From NCBI GenBank assembly GCA_022826885.1, contig JAJDUB010000073.1, positions 65,388 to 129,387 of the forward strand: a DNA stretch of 64,000 nucleotides. Reading direction: 5' to 3'. Source of the stretch: Gammaproteobacteria bacterium (GTDB lineage: Bacteria; Pseudomonadota; Gammaproteobacteria; Eutrophobiales; Eutrophobiaceae). Each line of letters begins with the position of its first letter. Positions within the stretch are counted from its first letter, which is position 1. The notes under the pieces were generated by a model. The model was not told where the DNA came from. It saw only the letters and a program-made list of their open reading frames with translations, and ran no database searches. Both the position numbers and the translations under genes were made by a program. This document shows positions 19,064-38,921 of this stretch, piece after piece.

Positions 19064-20218
19064 TCAACGCGACCGGCCTTTTGTCATTGATGTCCTTATA
19101 AGCAACTGCGCAAAAAAGTGCAACAGATTATTCAATGTCCAGTAAAGCACCATGGCGGCGGGAAACGGGTATAAAAGAAGTAGAAAAGCCAGCGCCATCC
19201 AGCAAAGGTTGCGCCTTTGGCGGGTACGCTCTCTGTTTGACCACAGGTCATTCCGGAACGTCAGGACAGACAGATATGTCACCGCAAACATTACGAACGG
19301 CAGCAGGTGAACAGTCTCCCCGAACAGCGGAATATTGAAGGGTATCACGGCAATTACGTCCGGATATGCCAGGTCATCGATCCAGAGAAAGGATTGACCC
19401 GCCAACTGCGGCATTTCTCCCAGTGCATTGAAAACAGCGATCCAGATCGGGACCTGAACCAGCACGCCCAACAGCGGCTTCAACGAATAGAACGGTGTAA
19501 CTCCCAGGGTCCTGTGAACTGCCATTATGCGATTGTGAGCCTCTTCACCGTCATAGTTCTCCTTGATATCGGCTATTCGCGGTTCGAGCAACGACCGGAC
19601 CCGACTGACCTCGTCCTGCAAACCGGCAACCACATTATTAACAGGGAATAGCGCCAGTTTCAGCAGGATGCTGAACACTACTATTGCAAGGCCCCAGTGA
19701 TTGACCGCGTGAGCCTGGATCGTCACCAGGGAATACTCGACGACCTTGGCCAACCAGGATAACGGCGCCCACAGGTGTGCATACCGGACCTGGTCCAGTT
19801 CGGGCGCTACCGTATGGAGATCGGATTTCTTTACAAGTTGCAGGCGCCCCGGTTCGACCTGCGTTTTCAGATACTCCAGCGTACCTTTCCGACCGCTCAG
19901 ACGCAGGCCAGGATCGGTGCCCTGCACCAACAACACCTTGAAGCGTGCGGCCACGGCCAGCCACGTACCGTTCTCCAGGATGAACGCATCACCATGCTCC
20001 AGTGGTTGAAAAACATCTTTTCCTACGAAATAGAAATTCACGTCGTTGTAATAGGAGGCGAGTCCGGCAAAATGATGCGTCTCTCCCGTGGCCTGGAACT
20101 CACACCAGGGGTCCGCAGAACTGCTCATGCAGTGCTCATGATCGGCTGACCATCCGGTTACGCACGCACACGAATTGCCTGCGGCCAGCAACAGGTATAA
20201 AAAACAGACTATACGCAA
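19064..20218 (-). CDS. YidC/Oxa1-family membrane insertase paralog
   Basis: 384 aa. WGLAIVVFSILLKLALFPVNNVVAGLQDEVSRVRSLLEPRIADIKENY..HRTLGVTPFYSLKPLLGVLVQVPIWIAVFNAL..FLWIDDLAYPD..PAAMVLYWTLNNLLHFFAQ matches the conserved YidC core helices. A signal/lipoprotein-like N-terminus and a ~150-aa periplasmic domain precede the core. Confidence 0.8.
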   Translation of the reverse strand: MRIVCFLYLLLAAGNSCACVTGWSADHEHCMSSSADPWCEFQATGETHHFAGLASYYNDVNFYFVGKDVFQPLEHGDAFILENGTWLAVAARFKVLLVQGTDPGLRLSGRKGTLEYLKTQVEPGRLQLVKKSDLHTVAPELDQVRYAHLWAPLSWLAKVVEYSLVTIQAHAVNHWGLAIVVFSILLKLALFPVNNVVAGLQDEVSRVRSLLEPRIADIKENYDGEEAHNRIMAVHRTLGVTPFYSLKPLLGVLVQVPIWIAVFNALGEMPQLAGQSFLWIDDLAYPDVIAVIPFNIPLFGETVHLLPFVMFAVTYLSVLTFRNDLWSNRERTRQRRNLCWMALAFLLLLYPFPAAMVLYWTLNNLLHFFAQLLIRTSMTKGRSR

Positions 20219-20231
20219 AACCGATCGCTCG

Positions 20232-22274
20232 CTAATGCAGGCATTGACGAAGTTCTCTCACCGTATCGACGATGCAGACCCGAGTGAAGTCCTCTCGTTT
20301 TCTCAACCTGGCTGTTATGGTATCTTCCCCGACAAAGCGCGTTATTCGTTTACCGTCCCCTACCGCAATTAAATGATGACGTTCCCTGTCACGATAACGT
20401 ATCCAGACTTTTTTCTCGTCTGTTATACCGAAATCGTTTATTTCAAGAAATTCGGCTACAGGGAATTGGGTAAAGTTTTTCTTTGTCCAATTGAATTCCC
20501 CTGTCTTCTTCCAGGAGGATTTTTTTGTAAGCGGACCGGACACTTCATATTCACCCAACTGAAGAAACCTGTCGTCATGGCCTGCTTCAACCCGTGATTG
20601 CCTCGTATGGTAATACCGCCGTACCCGGTTATCCGGCTTCTCATTCAAGAAATCAACGCCGTCGAAATCAACGCCCAGTTGCAACAACTCCGACATGGTT
20701 TTTGGTATGTCGGTTAGCGATATCTCAGCATCGACGGTTACCAGTTCGCCCCGTCCACCAGGTGGTTTAAGCAATAATAATGGATTGCTGTTGCCGATAT
20801 ACTTTGGAAAATTACGCACGTCGTCGTCAGGACCTGGCTTGAAATCCTGAAATGGCAAGTTCATCCCGTGGTCGCCATGTACCAGTATTGTTGCCGTGTC
20901 ATATATCCCGGAGCGTTTGAGTTTATCCAGCAACTTGACCACCTGGACCAGCGCACAGCGGGCCTGGTTATAGATATGGATGTATTCACGTTTGAGTTCC
21001 TTTTCCGAAAACCTGCAATTCGAGTCCGTAACAAAAGGCGGGTGAGGCGTAATCAGGTGAAACAGCTTATACACCCTGGACTGCTCTGCAAACCTGAACC
21101 TTTCAATCACTTCCTTCAGGAACTGAATGCCTATGTGATGGTTGAAAGTCAACCCCAGGTCCCGCGCATATAACCCGGAATACCTCCAGCGCCCCTGGTT
21201 GTATATTGATTTCTTAAGCAGTTTCGGCGCACTGCGAAACAATGACAAATCAAACAGGTAGGCAGTTTGATAATACACCACTTCCCGGACACTTATTGCA
21301 GAACTGTAAGGCTTGGGCATAAAGAAAAATTGCGAATAAAATTCCTGGTCCTTAATCACAATAAACGGGGTGGCGACATCGATTGTGAAACCGCTCCGTG
21401 TTGCCGCTTCCAGAATATTCGGGACATGTTTCACGGGCGTTGCCGTACCCATTCTGGCCACGCGGCTATTGAACAGGTAAGTTTTCATCGGTTCGTTATT
21501 CGTATATTCCCGGCCGGTGAGAAACGCTGCAAACGAAAGCTGTGTGACTTCGGACGCCGTCAAGGTATCGGGATAATACAAAAAACCGTCCAGTGCTGAT
21601 GCGATCTCATTGTCGTTCCTGATGACGTCCTGAAAAAGACCGGACTGAAATCCGTCCAGCACAATATGAAGTACGTTTTCTTTCCTGGAAAAATTGCTGA
21701 TCGCACTCATTTCAGTGTTCACATCCGGGCCTTCATCATCGGCCTCGTTGCCTGATGAAATCAGCGCCTCCAGGTTGGCCGGAATTTCGTCAAGGCTGTC
21801 GCTGCGTGATAATACCAGCACGCCCAGGTTGATAAGCTGGAACAGACAAATACCGGTAAACAACATCCTGATGTTGTCAAGCACCTTGTGCCTGAACGCG
21901 TATATGAGCCCACCGCTGAAACCGTAGATAATTAAATCCACGGCAATTTGCATTGTTGTGAAGGTATGCAGACCCTGGCCATCCAGGACGTTGAGGGACT
22001 CGCTTAACAAAAAAAACTGGATGGTACTGACGACTACGAGGAACAAAAGCGTATTGACAACCAACAGATGACTTCTTTTCCCTGCCAGGGTAATCATTGC
22101 GAAGATAACGATAAAAATTACGGCGCCGGCCTTGACCAGGAATACCCAGAACTCGAACAGCGGGATAATGAATTCACTGCTGTTCGTCACGAACAGGACA
22201 GCACATGGAACCACCGAGAGACAGATGGAAGCAGTTACTGCAATATACAAGTGGTTCGAAATAACACTCTTCAT
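20232..22274 (-). CDS. polytopic membrane sulfatase-like transferase (LtaS/OpgB/phosphoglycerol- or phosphoethanolamine-transferase-like)
   Basis: The N-terminal multi-TM region is followed by an alkaline-phosphatase-superfamily domain (VLHIVLDGFQSG, LTASEVTQLSFAAFLTG, HLITPHPPF, ILVHGDHG). I trimmed the start to ATG 22274-22272, which forms an ATGA overlap with the upstream stop. Confidence 0.7.
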   Translation of the reverse strand: MKSVISNHLYIAVTASICLSVVPCAVLFVTNSSEFIIPLFEFWVFLVKAGAVIFIVIFAMITLAGKRSHLLVVNTLLFLVVVSTIQFFLLSESLNVLDGQGLHTFTTMQIAVDLIIYGFSGGLIYAFRHKVLDNIRMLFTGICLFQLINLGVLVLSRSDSLDEIPANLEALISSGNEADDEGPDVNTEMSAISNFSRKENVLHIVLDGFQSGLFQDVIRNDNEIASALDGFLYYPDTLTASEVTQLSFAAFLTGREYTNNEPMKTYLFNSRVARMGTATPVKHVPNILEAATRSGFTIDVATPFIVIKDQEFYSQFFFMPKPYSSAISVREVVYYQTAYLFDLSLFRSAPKLLKKSIYNQGRWRYSGLYARDLGLTFNHHIGIQFLKEVIERFRFAEQSRVYKLFHLITPHPPFVTDSNCRFSEKELKREYIHIYNQARCALVQVVKLLDKLKRSGIYDTATILVHGDHGMNLPFQDFKPGPDDDVRNFPKYIGNSNPLLLLKPPGGRGELVTVDAEISLTDIPKTMSELLQLGVDFDGVDFLNEKPDNRVRRYYHTRQSRVEAGHDDRFLQLGEYEVSGPLTKKSSWKKTGEFNWTKKNFTQFPVAEFLEINDFGITDEKKVWIRYRDRERHHLIAVGDGKRITRFVGEDTITARLRKREDFTRVCIVDTVRELRQCLH

Positions 22275-23434
22275 CTGCCCGGCCCCCTGGCAGCTTCCAC
22301 CTCTGACAGAATTTGCAGCAGGCACCTGGCCCCGTAGACACCGCTTTCACCGGGGTTAAAGACCATGTTACCAGGCCCGGAACCGGTAATGGCCGACCGC
22401 TTCAACAGTCCCTCGATCTTCTCCGTTACCCGATCAATCTCATGCAGTCCGAGGATATCGCTACGCCCGGTTTTTCTGATCCTGCATTCCAGCGGCTCCA
22501 TGGCAATCCTGTGATGGTCCGGATTATTGACCTTCATCGGCACATCCACATACAACACCGGCTTGTTGAGAGCGAACATGTATTCGAGCGCCACTCCGGA
22601 CCAATCACTGATCATCATATCCGAGTCATGTAAAGTATCCTCACCCACAACGTTCAATTCATGGGTGAATAACGGATCCGCCTCGTATTGTGTCAAAATT
22701 GCGCCGACCTTGTCCCCGGCAAATTTAAGCGTCTGCGGATGGGGTCGAAGTGTTACCCGGTATTGGCCTCGAAGCAAGTGATCGACAATGGATGCACCAA
22801 TGCCCGATTCAATCATACCTCCAGGGCCCCAGGATGGAGCAACCAGTACATGACTGTGCGCTCCAGCGGAATTCTCTTCCCGGGAACGATCCCGGGACTG
22901 ACTGAGAATGGTATCCAGGCGGCCATATCCATGCTCCACCAGCCTCTTGGGACGCAGGTTGAATTCCGCTTCCATGGCCCGTATTTCCGTGATGTGGTGA
23001 GGCCCGGCGCAAAAAATCGTATCGTAATGATCAAACGCTCCTTTTCTATAAACCATATACAGACTTACCAGCGAATGCTGCACGTAGACGTAATGAACAT
23101 CATGTCGGGAACGCTTGACCTGGTACTGGTGCAGGTCGGGCATGGTCATGACGAAAACATTCGTTTCGATATTCCTGAACAACCAGTCCCGTACATGCCC
23201 CTCGTCAATCACGAATTTCCGGTAATCCGGATGCGCAATGAGTAAGCCGGGATCATCCTCATCCGAAGTGATATAACAAACCGGCACGTCTGACAGCGCC
23301 AGCACTTCCACAACCAGGGGTTGAAGGTGTGGCCAGTAATTCCTGCCTTCCGAATAGAAGGTGATCCGGCGGGTGCGTCCGGGCAGTTGAATATATCGGA
23401 TTACATTGCACAGGTGTTGAACGAATCTGAACAT
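22271..23434 (-). CDS. CDP-glycerol/polyol-phosphate glycerophosphotransferase-like protein (TagB/TagF family)
   Basis: 387 aa. HGYGRLD, VLVAPSWGPGG and SDMMISDWSGVALEYMF resemble the TagF-family motifs (GYPR.D, ILYAPTWR, SD.LITDYSS..FDF). Confidence 0.6.
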   Translation of the reverse strand: MFRFVQHLCNVIRYIQLPGRTRRITFYSEGRNYWPHLQPLVVEVLALSDVPVCYITSDEDDPGLLIAHPDYRKFVIDEGHVRDWLFRNIETNVFVMTMPDLHQYQVKRSRHDVHYVYVQHSLVSLYMVYRKGAFDHYDTIFCAGPHHITEIRAMEAEFNLRPKRLVEHGYGRLDTILSQSRDRSREENSAGAHSHVLVAPSWGPGGMIESGIGASIVDHLLRGQYRVTLRPHPQTLKFAGDKVGAILTQYEADPLFTHELNVVGEDTLHDSDMMISDWSGVALEYMFALNKPVLYVDVPMKVNNPDHHRIAMEPLECRIRKTGRSDILGLHEIDRVTEKIEGLLKRSAITGSGPGNMVFNPGESGVYGARCLLQILSEVEAARGPGR

Positions 23435-24176: not shown

Positions 24177-24422
24177 TCATTCTTCCTGAGACTTTTCAGG
24201 TTCAGGGTCCGGTTTGTCGGCGGATCGGGTCTGCCTGGTAAACAGCGCTTTCAGTTTGTACCAGTATGTTTTGACAGTTAATCCCAACGCTACAAAAAAG
24301 CCGATGATTAACGACATGATGGCACTGCCTGAGCCCGGATCAATATAAGCGACGGCAGGTAACCAGGCCGTAACCAGAACGGCAAATACAATAAACCGGA
24401 CGACCCACATAATTCGTTTCAT
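24177..24422 (-). CDS. small two-TM membrane protein (hypothetical)
   Basis: 81 aa from ATG 24422-24420 (the ORF track begins at TTG 24434). It has two hydrophobic helices flanking YIDPGSGS and an acidic/basic tail. The ATGA start/stop overlap with the upstream giant gene argues that it is translated. Confidence 0.55.
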   Translation of the reverse strand: MKRIMWVVRFIVFAVLVTAWLPAVAYIDPGSGSAIMSLIIGFFVALGLTVKTYWYKLKALFTRQTRSADKPDPEPEKSQEE

Positions 24423-27400
24423 GACTTTTTCCAATAGAATGAGAGCATCTGATTCGTGATAACATCCGGGGCGTGCTCGGAGCTTGGAGACTCCATTCTG
24501 AGATCGATTCCATCGCCAGCCATAATCTCTACCATGTCTTCTCCAAAATCAGTATACACCAAAGACTTCCCCCCCCCGGGCGCACTGTGGTAATGCCTGG
24601 GTAATACGAACACATCCTCCGGGCCGCTGGTATCCACCCTGAACACGGTTTTGGAACGCATCGGACGCTGTGAGGGTATGCTGAAGATATGCAAACCGCC
24701 TGGTTTAAGGATCCTGTTTACATCCTGGAAGCCGACAAAAGGCTTGCGAACATGTTCAAAGATATCCGAGGACAACACCAGGTCGAAGGAATTGTCTCCG
24801 TAAGTCAGGTTCATCAGATCCTGGCATTGAACGTCCTCGCGATACTCACCGGGAGCAACGTCTTCCCAGAAGTAGGAGTTAATGTAACCGGGCAGCTTCC
24901 GGAACAGTTTGCGGAACGGCCCTATCAGCCCGGGTTCATAAATCTTGAGATTCTGAAATTCGGCTTCGTTCACTAAATCGGCAAGGTGCCTGGAGCCTTC
25001 CCTGGAGAAATGATCAAGAATGAGTTGCGCCTGTTCCCGGTAACGCAGACTGGCTTCACAATTCCCACACCGGTATGTCTCCCTGATAGATTGTTCCTCG
25101 CGGCGCAGATAACCGGTATGCCCACACACCGCGCAGGAGTCAATGTACCCGTCCTTGTCGAAGTCAGCAGCGGCAGGCTTGCTGTGCGCTGCTTCGCGCC
25201 TGGCGAATTCCTTACCGACCAGTGTTAATATACGTGTCACCCTCTCGTCCCATGAGTTGGCTTCCAACAGATTCCGCATCCGTTCAATGTTGCCGGAGAC
25301 GGGGTTATTTTCCAGACAGTGGCTGATCCGCTCAATGAACTCGTCCGGGTTACGGCCAACCTGCACGAACTCGCGAAAATCCCCTATATTGGCAATGTGA
25401 GTGCTCACGACCGGCACATGCAGGGAAAAATACACATAGAGCTTCAGTGGATTCATACTCCGGGTAAGTTCGCTGTCCAGGTGGGGAATCATCGCCACGT
25501 CGAAGTGACGGATGTAGCGAAGCGCTTCCTCGTAGACACGAACTCCGAGGAAACGGACATTGCTGAATTTGTCCAGCTTCCTGATCTCCCTGCTCTTGTG
25601 CATGGAGCCGATGAAGACCAGGTTCCAGTCGGGCCGTTTGCTTGCCACGGTCGTCAACAGGTCGATATCGATGCGCGTGATGTCCAGGTTCCCGGCGTAC
25701 CCGATCACCGGTCCCTTGATGCGTCTCAACTCGGCGGGTTTTTTCCAGTGCCGCGCCTCATCTTCCAGTATCTCGGCCGCGTTGGGGAGCAAATGAATAT
25801 TATCAGCGTACTCCTGCATGTCTTCAAAGACACTGCGGCAATTGGCAAAAGTGACGTGAGTGCGCGCCAGGATCTCTTCATAGTTGCGGCGTAATTTCTC
25901 CTTGTATCGAGGCTTGCCGGGCCATTTACGTTGATCGTCGATCACGTCGGACACGACCAGGCCGGGCTTGAACCGATCCGCAATCATGGGGAAATCGAAT
26001 TTATTGGGGCAAACCCAGAAGACCGTGCGCCGTTGGCCGATCTGCTGCTCTCTCATCACCCGGGCCAGGTAATCGAGATAGTCCCCCTCAGCGGGCAGCA
26101 CCCAGTTCCGGAAACCTGAGGCACGATGCCGACCGGCGAAGATGAACGTATCGGAACGAACTTTACCCCTGTCCTGCAGGCGCAATCTCCGTTTCAGGGT
26201 ATTGGAAAGAACCAGGCCGGCATGACTGTGACGGCCACCTTGCCCGGACTTGAGAACGTCATGACCGGAACTGAAGATATTGACCGGCGCATCAAAATGA
26301 AGAATACGGTTAACCCGGGGGTCCCTGGCCAGGTACTTCACCAGCATATCCTGGCGCCGTCCGTAAATGCCGGTATCGTTTTGTTTCCAGAAAAATACGA
26401 TGTCTATCTTGTCGTCGACATAAGAACCGGCCTTGCGTACGTTAACGTCCGCTGCCTGGGCGGAGGGTGGAAGCAGACTTGCATCAGAAGCAGGCTGACC
26501 TCCCGCGACGACCTGCGCGCTCACCCGGGGCAAACCGGTCTCACCGGAGAATATCCTGCGGTGATAGGCGACCAGTTCGCGGAATGCATCCGGTATCGGA
26601 ACCGGATTGTTCAAAACCCGGTCGATGGTATCCTGCAGCCTGGGCAGGTTGGCGGCGTAGCTGTATTCACGTAAAAAAATCTCCCGGTTTTGCGTCGCCT
26701 TGTGTTTGTATGCATCGTAATCGCTGAAGATCTCATCGATCTTCCTGTCCAGTGGCGTATCGCCCAATAACTCCAGCAGTCCCTTCTTCGCGAGATTCAC
26801 CAGGGGCGGCACATCTGTCGCCAATACCGGAATACCCATCGAAAGTCCGTCCGAGAACTTGCCGGGCATTTGAAACCGGGTGGTAACCTGCTCCATGTCC
26901 TGGAGCAGGCAAATCAGGTCGCCGGCACTCAGGTAGCCGGGTAAATCAGTGAATGGCACGTTGGGAACCACTTTCACATGCGCGGACTTGATGCCGGCGA
27001 AAAATCGGCGCGCCTCGTTGTCCACCGGGGAACCGACGATCAGCAGCTTGTAGTCCGGGCGCTTCAGGGTCTCCAAAGCCGTCACAATGCGCGTGAAGCC
27101 CTTGTGCATTCGGGGTGTGCCGGCGAACAGGATAACCTTATCTTCCGCAGTGAAGCCAAGTTCCGCACGGATCGCATCACGCGGGTAGGCAGCCGGGTCA
27201 AAATCGTGATCGTCGCGGATATGCGGCAATACCATGCCGCCGAATTTCTTCCTCAATTCCTCATTGGAGACTGTGACCTGATCGAACATCTGTATAAGTG
27301 ATTCGCCGTAACGGGTCCAGGTCTCGTCATGCGGACAGAAAAAGTCCGGCCTGTGACGTTTTCGTTTCACCTGCTTCAGTGAAAGTGGTTTACGGTTCCT

Positions 27401-29524
27401 GAAAAATCCCGGTTCGTAGTCGTCCACGTCCACAATAACCGGCCGGTTCCTGTGTAACTTGGCGAGGATAGCGAGTTCCAGTCCGGGCAACCTCGGTTTG
27501 GATACATAAATGACATCCCCTTCTATCTGCCGGGCGATGTCCTCCATACGCTTGAAATGCTCCGGAAAGTTACTTCCGGGGAAACTTTTTACGGCAACCC
27601 GGCTGCAGTTGCGCAGCGGTTCCCAGACCTCGTTCCCGAATCGGGGAAATTGGGCGCCGATCAGATCAACGTCGTAATTGTGCCGCAAAACATCTGCAAG
27701 CAAATAGGCGCGGCCAAGAGGATTGTGCCCTAAATCCCATGTGATGACCGTAATCTTCGTTCTGGATTCACCGGCAGCGGGCTGCTTTCGTACGTCCGGG
27801 CGCTGTGCTTGCCCACGCTCCCGGACAAGCTTTGCCAACCGATCCGTTAACCCAGGTTGCCCTGCTTCAGGGAGCGTAGCGGTTTTTCTTCCTGATTTTG
27901 CCCGTGCGTTGCGAACGGCCTCGATAACTCGGGAAAACCGGCCAGTGCTCAACCATAAAAAAAAAATGACCGCCCGGCGCAGCTTTCCCAGGAGCCATCT
28001 GACACAACGCGACAGCACGCGCAACGGGGCGGTGATTTTCCAACTGGTCGAGTTATACAGTTCACCGATCGTCCTGTTGCGGTCCTCCAGCGTCGCAGTG
28101 CGAGACTTCAGCGTCGCAGTGCGTTCCTCCAGACTGCTCCTCAGACGCCTCGCTGATGCCTCCAGGGTTTTGATCCTCTTTTCACGAGCCTTCAGCGTCG
28201 CAGTCCGTTCCTCCAGGTTGCCCCTCAGCCGTTCTGCAGAACCCTCCAGGGCTTCGATCCTCTTTTCGCGAGCCTTCAGCGTCGCAGTCCGTTCCTCCAG
28301 GTTGCCCCTCAGCCGCTCTGCAGAACCCTCCAGGGCTTCGATCCTCTTTTCGCGAACCTTAAGCATCTCACCGCGCACCTCCAGTTTGCCTCTCAGCCGG
28401 GTTCCGGATTCTTCAAGCGCTTTTATCCGTTCGTCGCGGATTCTCAGGGTTGCAGTACGCTCCTCCAGCCTGCTCCTCCACTGGTCCAGCGAACTCTCCA
28501 GCGCATTGATCCGCTCCTCGCGTACCTTCAATGCCGCAGCATGCTCATCCAGGTTGTCCCTCAACAGGCCCACCGAAGCCTCCAGGGATTCAATCCTTGC
28601 TTCACTGAGCTTCACCGATGCGCTCAACTCTTGTGTCCTGTCGTTATGAAGGTTGAACGACACCTCTACCGATTCCAGATCAAGCAGGGCTTGTCTGGTC
28701 GCTCCCGAAACCGGAATGTTCAGGTCGCCATCAAAAACCTCATCACTGCGAAGGCGCAGCCAGAGCGCACGCTGTGACGGCAAAAGGTAATTCTCCGTCT
28801 CCTCATCGGTCGCCCTTTGGCGGTGAAGGTCGAGGTCAATGAACTGCTCGATAAGTCCGCTGTCCGGTTTTATCGAATGCCCTCCTCCCGGCCCTTCAAG
28901 TTCCTTAACGAGTGCATTCAATGTTTCAACCGGGTGTTGCATGAGTACTTCGTATGAAAGAGAAATGCGCGCCAGACCCTCGGATGCCTTCAAAGCGTGG
29001 AGATTGTATACCTCCCAGAGGGCGAGCCCTGCGGAGATACTGAAACCGTTGCGCGCCTGCAGGGAACGCGCAACTTCGAGAGGGTTACGATAGATATGGA
29101 CGCAAACGGGATTGTTTACATAGTGTCGCAAAACCGGCAGCAGAAGGCAGAGACGCGGCTCCTTGATGACCCAGGCCTGAAATTTGTCCAGTTCGGAAAC
29201 AATCCTTTCAAACTTTCGGCGTTGCTCGTCCTGCGCCGCGCGCGGGATGGCTTTCGGATCGAAGTTGGCGATCTTCCACCAATCGGCTCCCGCCGAATGC
29301 AACATCCGATCGCACAGTTCGCGCATGTCACGCCTTTCCCAGAACCCCTGGGGATTCTCGGCATTCGCCTCCGTAAGTTCCTTTTCTTCCCCTACCCACA
29401 CATCGCAGTGCCGCAGCGCCCCCGTTATGGCGCTGGTGCCCGACCGGTGCATTCCGAGCACAAAAAGTGCCGGTCTGGTGCTTTTCTCATCCAGGTTCTG
29501 TGAGACGATGTTATCGATTTTCAT
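24419..29524 (-). CDS. 1701-aa multidomain glycan assembly protein: sulfotransferase, 6 x 28-aa coiled coil, two GT-B glycosyltransferase domains, Zn-ribbon SAM methyltransferase
   Basis: aa 18-37 LFVLGMHRSGTSAITGAL is a sulfotransferase PAPS-loop-like motif. aa 306-473 are heptad-rich 28-aa repeats, followed by STSWKITAPLR. aa ~590-960 look GT4-like (ILFAGTPRMHKGF.., GIPVLATDVPPL). aa ~1000-1440 form a second GT-B domain (VIGYAGNLDITRID.., NPLKLYVYFSLHVPVVST). aa ~1470-1701 carry CAVCGH..CGNCEAS plus FDLVLSSDIFEHVRKPFVGFQDVNRILKPGGLHIFSIP. Confidence 0.8.
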   Translation of the reverse strand: MKIDNIVSQNLDEKSTRPALFVLGMHRSGTSAITGALRHCDVWVGEEKELTEANAENPQGFWERRDMRELCDRMLHSAGADWWKIANFDPKAIPRAAQDEQRRKFERIVSELDKFQAWVIKEPRLCLLLPVLRHYVNNPVCVHIYRNPLEVARSLQARNGFSISAGLALWEVYNLHALKASEGLARISLSYEVLMQHPVETLNALVKELEGPGGGHSIKPDSGLIEQFIDLDLHRQRATDEETENYLLPSQRALWLRLRSDEVFDGDLNIPVSGATRQALLDLESVEVSFNLHNDRTQELSASVKLSEARIESLEASVGLLRDNLDEHAAALKVREERINALESSLDQWRSRLEERTATLRIRDERIKALEESGTRLRGKLEVRGEMLKVREKRIEALEGSAERLRGNLEERTATLKAREKRIEALEGSAERLRGNLEERTATLKAREKRIKTLEASARRLRSSLEERTATLKSRTATLEDRNRTIGELYNSTSWKITAPLRVLSRCVRWLLGKLRRAVIFFLWLSTGRFSRVIEAVRNARAKSGRKTATLPEAGQPGLTDRLAKLVRERGQAQRPDVRKQPAAGESRTKITVITWDLGHNPLGRAYLLADVLRHNYDVDLIGAQFPRFGNEVWEPLRNCSRVAVKSFPGSNFPEHFKRMEDIARQIEGDVIYVSKPRLPGLELAILAKLHRNRPVIVDVDDYEPGFFRNRKPLSLKQVKRKRHRPDFFCPHDETWTRYGESLIQMFDQVTVSNEELRKKFGGMVLPHIRDDHDFDPAAYPRDAIRAELGFTAEDKVILFAGTPRMHKGFTRIVTALETLKRPDYKLLIVGSPVDNEARRFFAGIKSAHVKVVPNVPFTDLPGYLSAGDLICLLQDMEQVTTRFQMPGKFSDGLSMGIPVLATDVPPLVNLAKKGLLELLGDTPLDRKIDEIFSDYDAYKHKATQNREIFLREYSYAANLPRLQDTIDRVLNNPVPIPDAFRELVAYHRRIFSGETGLPRVSAQVVAGGQPASDASLLPPSAQAADVNVRKAGSYVDDKIDIVFFWKQNDTGIYGRRQDMLVKYLARDPRVNRILHFDAPVNIFSSGHDVLKSGQGGRHSHAGLVLSNTLKRRLRLQDRGKVRSDTFIFAGRHRASGFRNWVLPAEGDYLDYLARVMREQQIGQRRTVFWVCPNKFDFPMIADRFKPGLVVSDVIDDQRKWPGKPRYKEKLRRNYEEILARTHVTFANCRSVFEDMQEYADNIHLLPNAAEILEDEARHWKKPAELRRIKGPVIGYAGNLDITRIDIDLLTTVASKRPDWNLVFIGSMHKSREIRKLDKFSNVRFLGVRVYEEALRYIRHFDVAMIPHLDSELTRSMNPLKLYVYFSLHVPVVSTHIANIGDFREFVQVGRNPDEFIERISHCLENNPVSGNIERMRNLLEANSWDERVTRILTLVGKEFARREAAHSKPAAADFDKDGYIDSCAVCGHTGYLRREEQSIRETYRCGNCEASLRYREQAQLILDHFSREGSRHLADLVNEAEFQNLKIYEPGLIGPFRKLFRKLPGYINSYFWEDVAPGEYREDVQCQDLMNLTYGDNSFDLVLSSDIFEHVRKPFVGFQDVNRILKPGGLHIFSIPSQRPMRSKTVFRVDTSGPEDVFVLPRHYHSAPGGGKSLVYTDFGEDMVEIMAGDGIDLRMESPSSEHAPDVITNQMLSFYWKKS
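28106..28609. repeat. six tandem 84-bp (28-codon) repeats inside the giant gene; copies at 28190-28273 and 28274-28357 are nearly identical
   Basis: Read directly: ccttcagcgtcgcagtccgttcctccaggttgcccctcagccg(t/c)tctgcagaaccctccagggcttcgatcctcttttcgcga occurs twice with an 84-bp period and only about 2 mismatches. The flanking units are more diverged. The protein units run VREKRIEALEGSAERLRGNLEERTATLK. Confidence 0.9.
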
Positions 29525-29526
29525 GG

Positions 29527-30282
29527 TCAGGCCGCCTGCCTGTATTCCTGTAGCACCTCCTGTATCGGTCCGCGGGCCTTGACTTTACCGGCATCGAGCA
29601 GGACCCCAGTGGTGCAGATGCGTTCCAGCAGGGAGAGGTTCTGCGAGGCAACCACCAGAATTCTGGCGCGGTCCATGAAATCATCAAGCCGGCGCCTGGC
29701 CTTGTCGACGAAGATCCGGTCACCGACGCTGAGCCATTCGTCCATCAACAGTATCTCAGGATCAAAGCAGGTACATACCGCGAAGGCGAGGCGCAGCCGC
29801 ATACCGTTCGAGTAAGTGTGTACCGGCATAGCCAGGTAGTCGCCCAGTTCAGTGAACTCCGCAACTTCATCCATACGCTCGCGCACCTCATCCGGCATAA
29901 GGCCCAGGAACAATCCGCGCATCATGATGTTTTCGTAGCCCGTCGCCTCGGGGTCGATTCCCAGGGAAATATTCAGCAGCGCAGCGGTTCTCCCATGCCG
30001 CACCACACTGCCGCGTGTCGGTTCATAAGCGCCTGCGAGAACTCGAAGCAACGTCGTCTTGCCCGCGCCGTTGCATCCGATGAGCCCAACTCTCTCCCCG
30101 TGTTCGAACGCGAGGCTGACATTTTCAAGTGCGCGTACACACAACCGATTACCCGCGTCGCGCCCGATACGCCCGCCGGTGCCATGATGCAAAATGCGAT
30201 GCTTCAGCGAACGCGTGCTGGTGTTATAGATCGGAAAAACGACCGTGACTGCATCGAGTTCAAGGTTCGCCATGGCGCTCAC
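29527..30282 (-). CDS. wzt: polysaccharide/O-antigen ABC transporter ATP-binding protein (short form, no C-terminal carbohydrate-binding extension)
   Basis: 251 aa with Walker A GCNGAGKTTLL, signature-like YSNGMRLRLAF and Walker B ILLMDEWLSVGD. Overlaps wzm by 4 nt. Confidence 0.88.
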   Translation of the reverse strand: MSAMANLELDAVTVVFPIYNTSTRSLKHRILHHGTGGRIGRDAGNRLCVRALENVSLAFEHGERVGLIGCNGAGKTTLLRVLAGAYEPTRGSVVRHGRTAALLNISLGIDPEATGYENIMMRGLFLGLMPDEVRERMDEVAEFTELGDYLAMPVHTYSNGMRLRLAFAVCTCFDPEILLMDEWLSVGDRIFVDKARRRLDDFMDRARILVVASQNLSLLERICTTGVLLDAGKVKARGPIQEVLQEYRQAA

Positions 30283-31184
30283 ACCCAGTACGCCACTCGC
30301 CGGCGGTAATTACGGAACATATCCAAAGCCACGAGCCAGCCACCCAGCGTCATACCCAAAACCGTAATCCAGGAGACAAGCTGCGGCGCCTGTCCCAGCA
30401 ATGGCGCCCGCACCAACTCCAAATAGTGAAAAAACGGGTTGAAATCCAGCAATATGGCGCGGCCGGGCAATAATTCGGGCATCCAGATGATCGGCGTAAC
30501 GAAAAAGGCTATCCGTACGATACTGTCCATGACAGGCGGCACATCGCGGAAGCGGGCCGAGACAAGACCGAACAACAACCCCATCCATACGCCGTTCAGG
30601 CACAGGAGAACGAGACCCGGAACAACGAGTAATCCGGTCCAACCCGGCCAAATCGAGAAGATGATGGCGACTACGACAAAAATCGCGGCATTATGGAAAA
30701 ATATGAGCAGGTTGCGCCATATCACGCGATAAACATGCACCGACAAGGGCAGGTCTACCTGCTTGATTATGCTCCCGGCATCGGTAAACGCGCTGCAGCC
30801 TTCATTGATAAAGCCGGAAATCAGGGTCCAGATGATAAATCCAAGCGCAAGAAACGGCGCATAATCTGCTATTTCAACCTTCAACAAGGCGCCGTACAGT
30901 ACACTCAGTGCCGCCACGAGTACGCCCATGCTGATGGTAAGCCAGAACGGGCCGATCATGGAACGCCGATAACGCCGGCGGACGTCCTGCCAGCCGAGCA
31001 ATCCCCACAGGTGGAAGCTGCGCGCGCCTTTGCTCAGGTCAAGCAGGGCGGCGGCAATCTGTGAGGCGGCAGGCGACTGAGACACCGGTACGGTTTGTGG
31101 TCCGAACCCGTCGCCTGAGGTATCTATCGTCTCATCGTCTCGGGTTGCGCTGGGGACTTTTTCCTGGATCTGGTGACTCTGCAT
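30279..31184 (-). CDS. wzm: polysaccharide/O-antigen ABC-2 type transporter permease
   Basis: 301 aa. A hydrophilic N-terminus is followed by about six TM helices (..RRYRRSMIGPFWLTISMG.. is typical of ABC-2/Wzm). Coupled to wzt. Confidence 0.85.
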   Translation of the reverse strand: MQSHQIQEKVPSATRDDETIDTSGDGFGPQTVPVSQSPAASQIAAALLDLSKGARSFHLWGLLGWQDVRRRYRRSMIGPFWLTISMGVLVAALSVLYGALLKVEIADYAPFLALGFIIWTLISGFINEGCSAFTDAGSIIKQVDLPLSVHVYRVIWRNLLIFFHNAAIFVVVAIIFSIWPGWTGLLVVPGLVLLCLNGVWMGLLFGLVSARFRDVPPVMDSIVRIAFFVTPIIWMPELLPGRAILLDFNPFFHYLELVRAPLLGQAPQLVSWITVLGMTLGGWLVALDMFRNYRRRVAYWV

Positions 31185-31366: not shown

Positions 31367-32383
31367 GTGGAAGCGGTACTAGTCACTCTGGTTGCCGGGT
31401 TGGTGTCCGCCCTTCTTACGTGGATGCTTGTTCGTGCGGCGCTGAAGCTTTTGATTGCATATAACGTTGTCGACCGGCCCGGCACACGCTCCAGCCATGG
31501 AGGGAACGTTCCCACGGGCGGAGGTATTGCAGTTATCGGCGTGGTTCTGACAAGCTGGATGTGTCTGGCCCTCATCACCGGCACGCTTGGAGAGACCCTG
31601 ATCATCGTGACTGCAGCGGCTGTACTGGCAGGGATTTCCTTTATAGACGATATAAGACATGTCCCGAAGTTGGCGCGCCTCACAACCCATATCGCTGCCG
31701 TTGCCCTGGGGATTACCCTGTTGCCTGATACGGCGCTGCTGTTCGGCGGAGTGCTGCCGCCCTGGGCGGATCGTCTGGTGACCGGTGTAGCCTGGGTCTG
31801 GTTCATCAATCTTTTCAACTTCATGGATGGGATCGACGGGATCACGGGCGTCGAAACCATCGCGGTGGCGGGGGGTGTGGCAACGGCTCTGTTGCTCATG
31901 GCGCCGATAGAGAGCAGCGTCTGGTCGAAAGCATCGCTGGCTGCCGTGCTGGCAGGCGCGGCAGCGGGTTTTCTCGTGCTTAACTGGCATCCGGCGCGCC
32001 TGTTCCTGGGTGATGCAGGGAGTGTCCCGCTCGGTTACCTGCTGGGCTGGTTGCTGGTCTGGACCGCCTGTGTCGCGGGTCTCTGGTGGCTGGCACTGGT
32101 GTTGCCGTTGTACTACTGGGCCGACGCCACACTTACCCTACTGGCGCGGGGCTCGCGGGGAGAGAAAGTCTGGCTCGCCCATCGTCAGCACGCTTACCAG
32201 GTCGCGGTCAGGTCGGGAGCGAGTCACGCCGATGTGGCAGGGTTTATTGCCTTGATTAATCTCGCGCTGGTCGGGCTGGCGTTGGCGGCGACAGTCAGGC
32301 TGATTCCCGTCTGGTCAACCATTACCCTGGCCGTCGTCCTGGCTGCGATGGCACTGTGGCGTCTGCGCCACTGGCCCGATTGA
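31367..32383 (+). CDS. family 4 glycosyltransferase, undecaprenyl-phosphate HexNAc-1-phosphate transferase (WbpL/WecA/MraY-like)
   Basis: 338 aa, polytopic, with VVDRPGTRSSHGGNVPTGGGIA and NLFNFMDGIDGI motifs. GTG start. Divergent from wzm. Confidence 0.85.
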   Translation: MEAVLVTLVAGLVSALLTWMLVRAALKLLIAYNVVDRPGTRSSHGGNVPTGGGIAVIGVVLTSWMCLALITGTLGETLIIVTAAAVLAGISFIDDIRHVPKLARLTTHIAAVALGITLLPDTALLFGGVLPPWADRLVTGVAWVWFINLFNFMDGIDGITGVETIAVAGGVATALLLMAPIESSVWSKASLAAVLAGAAAGFLVLNWHPARLFLGDAGSVPLGYLLGWLLVWTACVAGLWWLALVLPLYYWADATLTLLARGSRGEKVWLAHRQHAYQVAVRSGASHADVAGFIALINLALVGLALAATVRLIPVWSTITLAVVLAAMALWRLRHWPD

Positions 32384-35073: not shown

Positions 35074-35751
35074 CTACGAAACGGCCTTTATGAATGCGCT
35101 TGTATCGATCTTACCCCAGGCGTAAAGGCGTGCCAGTGCTTCATAGTCCCGGTGAAGGAATCGCATGAGGTTTTTGCGGGCTTTCGATGACAAGGGAGGA
35201 CCTCGCATATCGCTGTTTTCATGTATCTGATATTCGTTGTTAATTCCAAACACTTTCGCTATGTCCTGATTTAACGTTTCCTGCATCAGTACTGCCTCTA
35301 TCTGGTCGGGTCGGCAACGGTCCAAAAGATTAGTAAGATAGAAACTGATATCCATGCGAATATGACCGATCGTCCGCATGGCCTTAACGGCCTCAGGCCT
35401 TGGTATCCCGTCATCATCGTACAGCGATTCGCTCAGCACATTGATGTTGCCGTATTGCGTCAGGGCTTCAAATTCTCCAGGATCGCTATGTCGTTGCTCT
35501 TCGGTAACCACCACCAGTTTGTAGCGCCAGTTAAATGCCGAAATTGTCCGTTCAAGGGGGTTTCTGGCAAGGATGATGTACCTCATGTTCTTCCGGAAGA
35601 CTGGCTGTTGGACGTGAAATATGCGAAGCTCGTCCGCAATCCCTGCCTCCCGCAATGCTGCGTTCAGTGAACCACCGCCACACTTGCCGATACGGACCAG
35701 TGACGTTTGCGTGTGGTGGCCGGCACTTTTCTTACGCTCTATACTAAACAC
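35074..35751 (-). CDS. sulfotransferase-family protein
   Basis: 225 aa. RIGKCGGGSL resembles the 5'-phosphosulfate-binding loop. ILARNPLERTISAFNWRY resembles the RDP.eR..Sa. motif of Sulfotransfer_2-type enzymes. Confidence 0.55.
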   Translation of the reverse strand: MFSIERKKSAGHHTQTSLVRIGKCGGGSLNAALREAGIADELRIFHVQQPVFRKNMRYIILARNPLERTISAFNWRYKLVVVTEEQRHSDPGEFEALTQYGNINVLSESLYDDDGIPRPEAVKAMRTIGHIRMDISFYLTNLLDRCRPDQIEAVLMQETLNQDIAKVFGINNEYQIHENSDMRGPPLSSKARKNLMRFLHRDYEALARLYAWGKIDTSAFIKAVS

Positions 35752-36132
35752 CTGCTATTGCCTCTTGCGTTCTCAGCCGTCTTTAAGTTCCATTCATTTG
35801 GCCGGTGATACCCGATTACAGAGTCTGCCCCTCGGTTGTAGACAGGGGACAAACCATGGACGTGCTGTCCCCTCTGTTGCCAAAAAATAATTGATTTGTG
35901 AGTCTTCCCACATACATGCTGGCAAGAATGCATTACACTGTCAACATGATGGGCGCCCTTCATTTGCATAGCCTGCAGTCAGCTTGATTAGAGAGAGCGG
36001 TCAGCGTCTCTCCGGCCGTTGTGGGCGCCGCAAAACGCAATAAAACACCCCTCAAATGCCCGTTTCAAATCTCTAACACGGAATTTGGGGATAATATAAC
36101 CCACAAATTTGACAACCAGAGGAGATATCTTT

Positions 36133-36345
36133 ATGGACCGTAAATCCGATCTTGACAACCACGCTGATCAACTGAATCCAAATAACGACGCATACTGGGA
36201 TAGCCGAGCGTATGACGGACGCCCGGACGACTGGGAAGAACTTGTAAACGAAGATGAGCATGAGATATCGCAGGCAGATCTCGATAATCATGCTGACCAG
36301 CTTAACCCTAACTCCGACACTTACTCAAAATCGCGCAGCGGGTAG
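36133..36345 (+). CDS. small acidic protein with duplicated DLDNHADQLNPN-D-Y motif (hypothetical)
   Basis: 70 aa from ATG 36133, preceded by GAGGAG 8 nt upstream. The two motif copies are SDLDNHADQLNPNNDAYWDSR and ADLDNHADQLNPNSDTYSKSR. Confidence 0.55.
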   Translation: MDRKSDLDNHADQLNPNNDAYWDSRAYDGRPDDWEELVNEDEHEISQADLDNHADQLNPNSDTYSKSRSG

Positions 36346-36467
36346 GTCTCGCCGACAGTTGACCCCAAGGGATGGGGTCGGACCAACATAACCCTTAATC
36401 GACAGGATTCCCGGATTTGCCCGAAATGACGGCTTCACGTCCCGGGGAAAGAATTAATGCGGGAGAA

Positions 36468-36707
36468 CTATCCTAACGCAATGATGATGCCGGCAAAAAC
36501 GAACAGGGAACCGACCATCCATTTGACAAGACGGGCTTCCAGCCCTGCAATTTCGCTTTTCAGGTCGGACTTTGTCGCCAGCAGGTCGGACTTTGTTGCC
36601 AGTTGCTCCAACTGTGACACTTGAATGACGTCCTCCGATGCCTTGGTTGCGCTCTCCTCCGATGCGCCGGCTTCAATAAATGCCTTGTAGAGTGCGGTAC
36701 TGCTCAA
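36468..36707 (-). CDS. DUF1640/CCDC90-like tail-anchored coiled-coil protein
   Basis: ..LYKAFIEAGASEESATKASEDV..LATKSDLLATKSDLKSEIAGLEARLVKWMVGSLFVFAGIIIALG combines an N-terminal helical region, a coiled coil and a C-terminal TM helix. The proposed TTG start at 36707-36705 forms a TTGA overlap with the upstream stop. The ORF-track start at 36767 would overlap the upstream gene by 64 nt. Confidence 0.55.
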   Translation of the reverse strand: MSSTALYKAFIEAGASEESATKASEDVIQVSQLEQLATKSDLLATKSDLKSEIAGLEARLVKWMVGSLFVFAGIIIALG

Positions 36708-37102
36708 GTCAGCTTGAGCACCGCGACCATCACCGCCAGACCGCTGAGAAAATACCAGGTCATCCACTTGATCATTTCAACCTTGAGCTTTTGCGCGCTG
36801 ACCTCTATATCCTGCCTCGTGGCAAAGTTTTTCAGGTCGTCCTTGGTGGCCATGTTTTGCTTAACCGTTTCAAGGTCGTTCTTAACGATCTCCAGATCGT
36901 CCCTGACGGTCTCAATATCCCGCCGGGTCGCCAGGTTGCTGAGCAGGTCTCCCTGCTCCGCGGCCAGCGTTTCCGCCTGTTGCTCGTTAAACCCGCCGTC
37001 GGTCATTCGTTTCACATACCCGTGGCTGTCAAATATCAGCGTGTCTTTCATTACCGCCTGGTAATGGCCGGTCGTCGCTCCGATTGGTTTCGTTTCGGTC
37101 AT
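36704..37102 (-). CDS. DUF1640/CCDC90-like tail-anchored coiled-coil protein
   Basis: 132 aa from ATG 37102, preceded by GGGAGG. FDSHGYVKRMTDGGFNEQQAETLA..LATRRDIETVRDDLEIVKNDLETVKQNMATKDDLKNF..MIKWMTWYFLSGLAVMVAVLKL shows the same architecture as the downstream paralog. Confidence 0.65.
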   Translation of the reverse strand: MTETKPIGATTGHYQAVMKDTLIFDSHGYVKRMTDGGFNEQQAETLAAEQGDLLSNLATRRDIETVRDDLEIVKNDLETVKQNMATKDDLKNFATRQDIEVSAQKLKVEMIKWMTWYFLSGLAVMVAVLKLT

Positions 37103-37226
37103 TGTAACCTCCCTGCTTGTCCCTGTGGACTGGTAAATATTGATATAAACCTGATTGACGGATGAAGCCGTCAATCCCTGTCTCAACCCTACAGGAGGGG
37201 GGGCCAAGCGTCAACAAAAAAAGACA

Positions 37227-37542
37227 TTCGTACTTTTTTCCCAAAAATGTGAGTTTCCTCACATTTTTGTTGATTTTTTGCTTTTCAGGTTATCTGAAAC
37301 GGATAAAATCATCCTTGCCATAAGGAAACCAGGCGGTGGTCAGTCCGGCACGAACAAGAATAAACAACGCCGGATGACCGGTCGAATGGAATTCGGGATG
37401 TTGTATGCCCGCATGCCCGAGGGCGGCCCGGTTACTGCTTGCCAGGGCCACGGATCAGGGGCAGCCCAAGGGCGCCAGGGGGGTGGATACCTGTCTTCCG
37501 CTTAATGTCACCTCTCCACCCCCTTCTGGCAGGGGCATGACC
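37227..37542. repeat. copy 1 of a ~300-bp bipartite direct repeat (palindrome-bearing left module, variable middle, GC-rich structured right module)
   Basis: Aligns by eye with 38922-39218. The left ~95 bp and right ~157 bp are about 85-90% identical and the middle is divergent. The element ends in ..GGCAGGGGCATGACC in both copies. Confidence 0.85.
37245..37266. promoter_or_regulatory. perfect CRP/Vfr-type consensus palindrome AAATGTGA-N6-TCACATTT
   Basis: AAATGTGAGTTTCCTCACATTT matches all 16 half-site positions of the 22-bp CRP consensus AAATGTGATCTAGATCACATTT. Confidence 0.6.
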
Positions 37543-37567
37543 AGAAATTAATCACATAGAAATAACT

Positions 37568-37595
37568 TTGATTAACTAAAGCTATTTGCTATAGT
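37568..37595 (+). promoter_or_regulatory. candidate sigma70 promoter of the toxin-antitoxin pair
   Basis: TTGATT (37568-37573), a 16-nt spacer, then TATAGT (37590-37595), about 20 nt upstream of the GTG start at 37616. Pattern match only. Confidence 0.35.
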
Positions 37596-37615
37596 TTATA
37601 TAATGGACTAAAGCA

Positions 37616-37873
37616 GTGTATCGATTGATTATACGGAAACAAGCGATTAAGGCATTACAGGGCATGTCAGCCAAGGACTCCGGCCGTATTCGCCAGTTAC
37701 TGGATAGGCTGGCGGAAGAGCCTGAGCGACGCGATATTGATGTCAAGCCGTTACGAGGCAATCGGGGTTTCCGTCTGCGGACAGGTGACTACCGGGTAAT
37801 TTTTGATCGGGACGATCAAACACAAGTGATAGAGATTTTACGTATTGGTCCGCGTGGAGATGTTTATAAATAA
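37616..37873 (+). CDS. type II toxin, RelE/ParE superfamily
   Basis: 85 aa with ..LDRLAEEPERRDIDVKPLRGNRGFRLRTGDYRVIFDRDDQTQVIEILRIGPRGDVY, the classic RelE/ParE C-terminal pattern (R.G.YR.i...d......i..i.hR...Y). Confidence 0.85.
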   Translation: MYRLIIRKQAIKALQGMSAKDSGRIRQLLDRLAEEPERRDIDVKPLRGNRGFRLRTGDYRVIFDRDDQTQVIEILRIGPRGDVYK

Positions 37874-37888
37874 ATTGGGCAACGCATT

Positions 37889-38266
37889 ATGACTGAACCA
37901 CAAATTATTCGCGATAACAGAGGCAACCCGGCGTTCGCTGTAATCCCATGGCAGGAATATCAGCACCTGAAAGCGGGCAGCGCTGACGAGTTGCCAACCG
38001 ACGAAGAACTGTACGACGAAGCCAAATCCAGCACTGAGGAAAGCTTTCCCATTGAGGTAGCTGACCGTCTTGTGGCAGGGGAAAACCCGGTCAAGGTATA
38101 CCGCAACCTGCGAGGCTTGACGCAAACACAGCTCGCGGCGGCTGCGAATATCAATGCGGTTTACCTCTCACAAATTGAAACCGGGAAACGCACCGGGTCG
38201 ATAAAAACCCTGGCCGCCATAGCAAACGCCCTGAATGTCGCCGTGGATGATTTAAGGAAACCCTGA
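37889..38266 (+). CDS. antitoxin with C-terminal XRE-type helix-turn-helix
   Basis: 125 aa. RNLRGLTQTQLAAAANINAVYLSQIETGKRTGSIKTLAAIANALNVAVDDL is a Cro/C1-type HTH. The gene lies 15 nt downstream of the toxin (toxin-first, HigBA-like order). Confidence 0.8.
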   Translation: MTEPQIIRDNRGNPAFAVIPWQEYQHLKAGSADELPTDEELYDEAKSSTEESFPIEVADRLVAGENPVKVYRNLRGLTQTQLAAAANINAVYLSQIETGKRTGSIKTLAAIANALNVAVDDLRKP

Positions 38267-38342
38267 ACAAGCCTGTTCCTGTACCAGTTACGGGACAGAA
38301 ACCGAAGCGGGGTTTAAGATTGTAACACCAGCCGAAACCTTG

Positions 38343-38906: not shown

Positions 38907-38921
38907 AAAACAACGCTACGC

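Follow-up and report, generated by a model that had tools for sequence, protein, structure and literature searches.

The 64,000-nucleotide (nt) stretch of a gammaproteobacterial contig that we analysed (JAJDUB010000073.1, assembly GCA_022826885.1; hereafter the window) carries a gene for a 1701-amino-acid (aa) glycan-assembly protein, and within this gene, at positions 28106–28609, lies an array of 84-nt repeats that encodes much of a long coiled coil. Comparison with orthologs reveals that the length of the coil varies widely in this protein family, for the most part in steps that keep the heptad phase. We consider it probable, largely by analogy with characterised systems, that the array codes for the variable stalk of a glycan factory of the Wzm/Wzt pathway and that this stalk acts as a ruler for chain length.

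An earlier, preliminary description of this DNA had proposed that the coil is encoded by six in-frame 84-bp units, the two central ones differing at about two positions and the outer ones being more diverged. All of these statements were borne out. The six units cover aa 306–473, and the central units (28190–28273 and 28274–28357) differ in the nucleotide comparison at exactly two of 84 positions, one a synonymous GAA/GAG change and the other a Val/Ala replacement. The unit at 28106–28189 matches the central pair at 69 of 84 positions and the three remaining units do so at 49–59, while flanking 84-nt control blocks reach only 14–36. Tandem Repeats Finder returned a period of 84 with 3.6 copies (87% matches, score 405) and an additional period-168 row that extends to 28478. 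Inside the array, the nucleotide autocorrelation was 0.733, 0.69 and 0.67 at lags of 84, 168 and 252, and 0.30–0.38 at the heptad lags of 21, 42 and 63; the control, 1000 codon shuffles, gave 0.291 ± 0.022 with a maximum of 0.357. Since the lag-84 value lies far above the codon shuffles, the similarity of the units goes beyond mere coiled-coil composition, and all six are derived from a single ancestral 84-nt unit. The rise of a coiled coil is 0.148 nm per residue. One unit of 28 residues, or four heptads, is then ∼4.1 nm long, in agreement with the ∼4 nm given earlier, and the whole stalk would measure ∼32 nm if straight.

The protein has 610 homologs at E ≤ 1e-10. Three subsets were used: 120 homologs, the 114 orthologs among them that have the core of the protein (sulfotransferase, coil and two glycosyltransferase family 4 (GT4) modules), and an alignment of 80 sequences. 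The compared sequences are all of metagenomic origin, the relatives being labelled as uncultured gammaproteobacterial metagenome-assembled genomes (MAGs) and the more distant ones falling in the Alphaproteobacteria and other phyla. As a measure of stalk length we took the coil spacer, defined as the distance from a conserved anchor of the N-terminal domain (N-domain; L280 of the window protein) to the STSW motif that follows the coil. The spacer is 212 aa in the window protein and ranges from 62 to 548 aa among the 114 orthologs. In 84 of them the offset from the window protein is a multiple of seven, where one in seven would be expected (binomial p 3e-46, uncorrected for phylogeny). The next-largest class, with 15 orthologs, is an offset of +4, which is the size of a coiled-coil stutter. 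When each distinct spacer length is counted once, 42 of 71 are in heptad phase.

Many orthologs have runs of near-identical 28-aa units, 2 to 17 in number; there are three such units in P0005, five in P0004, ∼14 in P0030 and ∼16 in P0021. Within one cluster of at least 90% identity the spacer lengths are 352, 436, 436, 464, 492 and 520 aa, every step being a multiple of 28, and further clusters at this threshold have spacers of 443 and 499 aa, of 205 to 380 aa and of 142 to 261 aa. A 7-aa unit, DRDKWLK, which is analogous to the 7-aa mini-repeat beside the array of the window (Table 1), is present in orthologs in one to about four copies and gives length steps of a single heptad. The proposed step of 28 residues is the dominant one in homogeneous arrays only; the quantum of the family as a whole is the heptad (7 aa). 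At the DNA level, period-84 arrays were found at the orthologous position of the gene in L004, a 3.77-Mb chromosome-level MAG (13.8 copies), and in L007 (4.6 copies), and the orthologous position in L008 (Candidatus Azophilus sp., OZ244830.1, 6899–8288) holds ∼10 copies of a 126-nt unit (42 aa, six heptads). The array period is 42 nt in L009 and 54 nt (18 aa) in L003. It seems that different lineages acquired or reshaped their repeat arrays independently. Taken together, the sequence comparisons show the repeat array to be a hot spot of recombination and slippage in this protein family.

In the clusters of P0005, P0030 and P0033, a large share of the members are gene fragments (65–1300 aa) on contigs of 10–200 kb. 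The abundance of fragments suggests that gene calls or assemblies often break at the repeat array, and copy numbers taken from short-read assemblies deserve caution.

The closest view of such a change comes from two contigs of a single assembly, ERZ25069191, namely L063 (231 kb) and L064 (510 kb). Between them there is one mismatch in 2000 nt upstream, the initial 880 nt of the gene are identical and its last 3650 nt contain two mismatches, which makes three in about 6,500 nt of flanking sequence. The arrays, in contrast, comprise 14.2 units in L063 and 15.2 units in L064, and the order of unit variants is ABBCDEBFGHIJKLM in the former and NBBBBODBBGGPQKLM in the latter. As the flanks are near-identical and the arrays differ, the array in this lineage evolves at a much higher rate than the sequence around it. 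Judged from these two contigs, alleles exactly one 28-aa unit apart co-exist in a single sample. The contig names resemble the output of a long-read assembler, whose reads would be long enough to cross the array.

The array of the window's own lineage has been more stable. Four distinct full-length sequences fall into one 90% cluster (that of the window, P0001, whose DNA is from L001, P0121 and P0123), and all have six units. L001 and the window share 97.0% nt identity and the gene is of equal length in both. Units 1, 2, 3, 5 and 6 differ by only 1–2 nt each between the two, whereas unit 4 differs by 9 nt, concentrated in a patch of ∼20 nt which has the sequence of unit 1 in L001 and that of unit 5 in the window. 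This pattern indicates an inter-unit conversion tract in one of the lineages since they diverged by 3%, with unit 4 of L001 and unit 4 of the window equally parsimonious as the recipient. The preliminary description had seen in the central pair a recent duplication, or ongoing conversion or slippage. Conversion is supported by the L001 patch, but recency is not demonstrable, as the divergence within the pair (2.4%) is similar to that between the two lineages (3.0%); the pair is about as old as the L001 split, or has been kept alike by conversion. The broader proposal, of a built-in mechanism for length variation, gains support from the wide variation of repeat counts among orthologs, largely in heptad or 28-aa steps, from the conversion patch and from the difference of one unit in the sister lineage of L063 and L064. 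The variability holds across the family and in that sister lineage, but the count is invariant in the lineage of the window, and we regard the six-unit array as a comparatively stable, partly degenerated state of a family-wide variable array.

The stalk is set in a protein whose domain order is a sulfotransferase of the type that uses 3′-phosphoadenosine 5′-phosphosulfate (PAPS), the coil, the motif STSWKITAPLR, a cationic amphipathic helix, two GT4 modules and a methyltransferase. Residues 1–620 were modelled with AlphaFold2 as a monomer, using the alignment of 80 orthologs. The N-domain has a predicted local distance difference test score (pLDDT) of ∼90, and Pfam Sulfotransfer_3 (PF13469) matches aa 18–210 (E 3e-8; score 34.5 bits, cutoff 27). 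In a Foldseek search of the PDB its top matches were all sulfotransferases (4gox, 4gbm and TPST1/2; E 4e-6 to 6e-4), with neighbours that include the curacin and olefin-synthase sulfotransferase domains, TPST1/2 and the mycobacterial Stf proteins. The P-loop MHRSGTS and the motif R146-N147-P148...S154 are invariant or nearly so in the 80 sequences, R146, P148 and S154 being strictly invariant, and GMHRSGTS is present in 93 of the 120 homologs. As modelled, the N-domain is a PAPS-dependent sulfotransferase fold with a 5′-phosphosulfate P-loop and a 3′-phosphate-binding motif. Placed at the end of the coil that lies away from the membrane, it is a candidate for the enzyme that caps or modifies the chain.

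A single heptad phase runs throughout aa 281–490, with hydrophobic residues at 40 of the 56 a/d positions, and aa 296–490 are free of proline. Indeed, DSSP assigns a single helix to aa 274–490 of the AlphaFold2 model, followed by a second helix at aa 493–526. In the STSWKITAPLR motif at the end of the coil, S492, S494, W495, T498, P500 and R502 are invariant in the 80 sequences; the motif is found in nearly all of the 120 homologs, twice in P0057, and the Pfam scan gave no family model that covers it. Its role may be to end the coil or to dock on the membrane, as an element common to many coiled-coil glycan enzymes. The hydrophobic moment reaches its protein-wide maximum of 0.77 at aa 502–519 (99th percentile 0.62), and no segment of transmembrane grade was found anywhere in the 1701-aa protein. 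The helix at aa 499–526 is predicted to be an in-plane anchor on the membrane surface at the proximal end of the coil. The core is present in 114 of the 120 homologs, and the C-terminal methyltransferase is missing from 64 of these 114. That the sulfotransferase is kept with the coil and the GT4 modules while the methyltransferase is often missing points to the sulfotransferase as the functional partner of the coil.

An extended coiled coil with a distal terminator is the hallmark of capped ABC-transporter-dependent glycans; the systems characterised so far have their polymerase, either fused or recruited, at the end of the coil near the membrane (PMC11231755, PMC5082667). The coil has been shown experimentally to act as a ruler in Escherichia coli O9a (WbdD) and Klebsiella pneumoniae O12 (WbbB), and engineered insertions and deletions in the coil of WbdD shift the modal length of the O-antigen (PMC5082667, PMC11231755). 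A similar function of the present stalk, which the preliminary description had raised only as a condition, is plausible by analogy with the architecture of WbdD, WbbB and ORF6 of K. pneumoniae O7, because the order of modifying enzyme, coil, membrane helix and polymerase matches that of proven rulers. The 28-residue super-repeat forms most of the unbroken stalk of about 215 residues. In the mechanism that we propose, this stalk would belong to a glycan factory of the Wzm/Wzt pathway that consists of one polypeptide, is cytoplasmic and is associated with the membrane. The sulfotransferase would sit at the far end of the stalk, and the invariant motif, the membrane-binding helix and the two GT4 polymerase modules at the near end. 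Unequal exchange and gene conversion between units add, remove and homogenise whole units of 28 aa or blocks of some other multiple of 7 aa, and so shift the length of the stalk in quanta of ∼1 to 4 nm with the reading frame and the heptad phase kept. The stalk would serve as a molecular ruler in that the distal sulfotransferase could modify or cap a growing lipid-linked chain only when the chain has become long enough to extend to it. The modal length of the glycan would in that case depend on the length of the stalk, and gain or loss of repeats would diversify chain length between strains.

A more specific version of this mechanism can be put forward tentatively, at less than even odds in our judgement. 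The array would be a graded contingency locus, as opposed to an on/off switch, in which slippage or recombination by 84 nt shifts the distance between sulfotransferase and polymerase by ∼4 nm (1 nm per heptad), so that co-existing strains differ in modal glycan length. The sulfate cap would be new to ABC-transporter-dependent glycans, and no cap-binding module of the transporter would be needed.

Several observations weigh against a ruler, and some of them favour its main rival, in which the coil merely oligomerises or tethers the catalytic parts, its weakly constrained length drifts because tandem repeats are mutationally unstable, the kinetics of polymerisation and export set the length of the glycan and the sulfotransferase decorates the chain. 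Prototype capped systems have a Wzt with a carbohydrate-binding module (CBM), and transporters that lack it go with cap-independent length control. The Wzt encoded next to the large gene has no C-terminal CBM and is most like the galactan-export type, matching the CBM-less NCBIfam galactan-export profile over 4–242 of its 244 positions; in the 15 closest orthologous loci, too, only 0–10 residues follow the ATPase domain. A spacer range of 62–548 aa among proteins whose flanks are 90–99% identical suggests a loose constraint on length, and the excess of multiples of seven is explicable by slippage between heptad-periodic repeats alone, without any selection on geometry. In the literature that we searched, in which the terminator census of Mann et al. 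(2019, Glycobiology) was not covered, we found no earlier case of a chain terminated by sulfate. A phmmer search with the full protein against all PDB sequences, in which the solved WbdD and WbbB chains are presumably included, gave no WbdD or WbbB chain at E ≤ 0.01, the only matches being the CAST coiled coil, the GT4 enzyme PimB′ and a methyltransferase. Lastly, the confidence of the AlphaFold2 monomer is low around aa 397–409, within the stalk. Even so, we think a neutral spacer less likely than a ruler. The coil sequence is almost unconserved, yet the heptad register from anchor to anchor is unbroken in most orthologs, even where the repeats have the unrelated periods of 126, 42 and 84 nt. 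A simple tether needs no rigid rod of 10 to 80 nm, and the domain order is exactly that of the proven rulers (PMC11231755).

It is also possible, though we would not favour it, that the arrays of the family vary while the largely degenerated array in the window no longer does so appreciably, and hence that there is no working switch here. This would fit with the six units in all four distinct sequences of the 90% cluster, which diverge by up to ∼3–4%, an invariance that again counts against a variable ruler in this lineage. It would also fit with the low identity of the units outside the central pair (58–70% to any other unit, except for that at 28106–28189, which is 82% identical to the pair), and with a near-identical pair that predates the L001 split or has been homogenised since. 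On the other hand, the conversion patch in unit 4 arose after that split, the sample consists of four sequences only, and units 4 and 5 share an uninterrupted identical run of ∼47 nt, which is sufficient for slippage or homologous (RecA-mediated) exchange. A much less credible explanation is that the duplicated unit, or the differences in copy number, are artefacts of metagenome assembly, in which repeats were collapsed or expanded. Many cluster members are fragmentary and the sequences are all metagenomic, but the central units differ at two positions, arrays of ∼1.2 kb sit on contigs of 0.2–4 Mb, and contig names look like those of long-read assemblies. For the array of the window we reject this explanation, as six units recur in independent assemblies.

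Among characterised proteins, the one in the window looks like a WbbB- or O7-ORF6-type single-protein polymerase–terminator in function, and lies outside those families by homology. WbbB (K. pneumoniae O12 and Raoultella terrigena) is likewise a single polypeptide, in which a chain-modifying domain at the N-terminus is followed by a long coil and then by two GT modules that polymerise the chain. However, its terminator is a GT99 β-Kdo transferase rather than a PAPS-type sulfotransferase fold, its GT modules belong to other families, its Wzt has a cap-binding CBM, it has no detectable sequence homology to the window protein, and no tandem-repeat length polymorphism is reported for it in the literature consulted. 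WbdD (E. coli O9a and K. pneumoniae O3), a methyltransferase–kinase with a trimeric coil, shares the N-terminal terminating enzymes, the extended coil and the C-terminal, membrane-associated amphipathic helix. It differs in its capping chemistry, in recruiting a separate polymerase, WbdA, where that of the window protein is fused, in having a Wzt with a CBM, and in the length of its coil (∼20 nm, against ∼32 nm in the window protein and about 10 to 80 nm in the orthologs). The closest format is that of ORF6 of K. pneumoniae O7, with an N-terminal methyltransferase–kinase terminator, a central coil and two C-terminal GT modules, in a cluster that also has rhamnose-pathway genes (PMC11231755). 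Unlike the window protein, ORF6 has GT2 rather than GT4 modules, a methylphosphate terminator, an extra CBM-like domain and no sulfotransferase, and a repeat-coded coil has not been described for it. In-frame repeat copy number that differs between strains is known to alter the length of a ruler or rod, through intragenic recombination, in the Yersinia needle-length ruler YscP and in size variants of the streptococcal M protein. These are unrelated proteins, a secretion-needle ruler and a surface fibril, and they do not measure a cytoplasmic polysaccharide.

Relative to the literature consulted, the new features are the distal sulfotransferase, a stalk coded by homogeneous tandem DNA repeats, and extensive natural, heptad-phased polymorphism in stalk length down to co-occurring strains; for natural repeat polymorphism in O-antigen rulers, our literature search returned nothing relevant. 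Coiled-coil O-antigen rulers have so far been established by engineering in two enterobacterial proteins, and this family offers a natural version of the experiment, with more than 100 orthologs that have near-identical catalytic parts and stalks of ∼60 to ∼550 residues, and with one co-occurring pair that differs essentially by a single 28-residue unit. Should the length of the stalk determine that of the glycan, the ruler model can be tested directly and cheaply on natural alleles. Repeat variation would then let a surface polymer diversify quickly and in graded steps, possibly helping uncultured marine or host-associated bacteria to evade phages, grazers or hosts. Sulfate would become a candidate for a new capping chemistry, and the locus an example of capping with a transporter that does not read the cap. 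Should the two lengths be unrelated, the family shows that such coils tolerate a nine-fold range of lengths, which would itself constrain ruler models.

Table 1. Positions in the window of the large gene, its domains and repeats, and the adjoining transport and initiation genes
Feature	Position	Strand	Basis
Multidomain glycan-assembly gene, 1701 aa	24419..29524	-	Open reading frame (ORF) list; Pfam; database protein P0122 identical
PAPS-type sulfotransferase domain, aa 18–273	28706..29473	-	Pfam, AlphaFold2, Foldseek, conserved motifs
Continuous coiled-coil stalk, aa 274–490, about 215–217 residues	28055..28705	-	Heptad analysis; AlphaFold2/DSSP
84-nt unit array, six in-frame copies, each a 28-aa four-heptad super-repeat	28106..28609	-	aa 306–473
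Central unit pair, aa 390–445	28190..28357	-	82/84 identical; longest uninterrupted identity ∼47 nt
21-nt (7-aa) mini-repeat TATLKSR/TATLEDR, abutting the C-terminal end of the array	28078..28132	-	Tandem Repeats Finder, period 21, 2.6 copies
Motif STSWKITAPLR, aa 492–502, directly C-terminal of the coil	28019..28051	-	Conservation in homologs
Cationic (Arg/Lys-rich) amphipathic helix, aa 499–526	27947..28030	-	Hydrophobic moment; AlphaFold2 helix 493–526
First GT4 (GT-B) module, aa ∼590–970	26615..27757	-	Pfam Glycos_transf_1 (PF00534) 782–940; NCBIfam TuaC/stp3-like 761–971
Second GT4 module, aa 1153–1434	25223..26068	-	Pfam Glyco_trans_1_4 (PF13692) 1272–1406; NCBIfam TuaH-like 1153–1434
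Cys4 zinc-ribbon-like segment and S-adenosylmethionine (SAM) methyltransferase, C-terminal	24422..25141	-	Pfam Methyltransf_11 1564–1614
wzt, ABC-transporter ATPase, 251 aa	29527..30282	-	Pfam ABC_tran; NCBIfam galactan-export Wzt
wzm, ABC-2 permease	30279..31184	-	Family matches
WecA/MraY-family polyprenyl-phosphate sugar-1-phosphate transferase (initiating)	31367..32383	+	Pfam Glycos_transf_4, E 2e-28

The genes around the array protein (Table 1) form an ABC-transporter-dependent surface-glycan (O-antigen-like) cluster. wzt and wzm lie immediately upstream of the large gene in the same orientation, and the WecA-family gene is divergent; the wzm/wzt/WecA-like arrangement is also found in L001, L063 and L064. 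Other genes of the locus include several small methyltransferases, rmlABCD and further nucleotide-sugar genes. On the opposite strand of the array itself there is a 308-aa ORF (27723–28649, plus strand), which is the repeats read in antisense, Ser/Arg/Leu-rich and itself repetitive; we rejected it as a gene, which it almost certainly is not.

At the other end of the large gene, an 85-aa hydrophobic ORF on the minus strand (24177–24434) shares 16 nt with the large gene, the stop codon of the latter included. It has no family match, an 81-aa counterpart occupies the same place in L001, and it could be a small membrane partner. Further on and still within the glycan cluster, the minus strand at 19064–23434 encodes a YidC-like (60KD_IMP) protein, a TagF-like glycerophosphotransferase and an LtaS/EptA-like membrane enzyme of the sulfatase family (697 aa). 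L001 has these three genes as well, and their composition suggests that the polymer receives a periplasmic or phosphoglycerol-type decoration.

Bordering the glycan locus on its other side is a 225-aa ORF (35074–35751, minus strand) with sub-threshold sulfotransferase matches (Sulfotransfer_1, E 0.015). By eye, GKCGGGS resembles a P-loop and there is a motif ARNPLERTIS, so that the ORF may encode another sulfotransferase, one that stands alone. The polysaccharide genes are then broken up by a segment at 35800–39200 that has only small ORFs and looks like an inserted accessory islet. It contains an HTH_3 regulator (37889–38266), a 187-aa ORF and two coiled-coil membrane proteins of the CCDC90-like/DUF1640 type (36468–36767 and 36704–37207). 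Finally, a 1447-aa RTX protein is encoded on the plus strand at 43923–48266, adjoining nucleotide-sugar genes, and has many HemolysinCabind nonapeptide repeats and a segment like the C-terminal part of serralysin.

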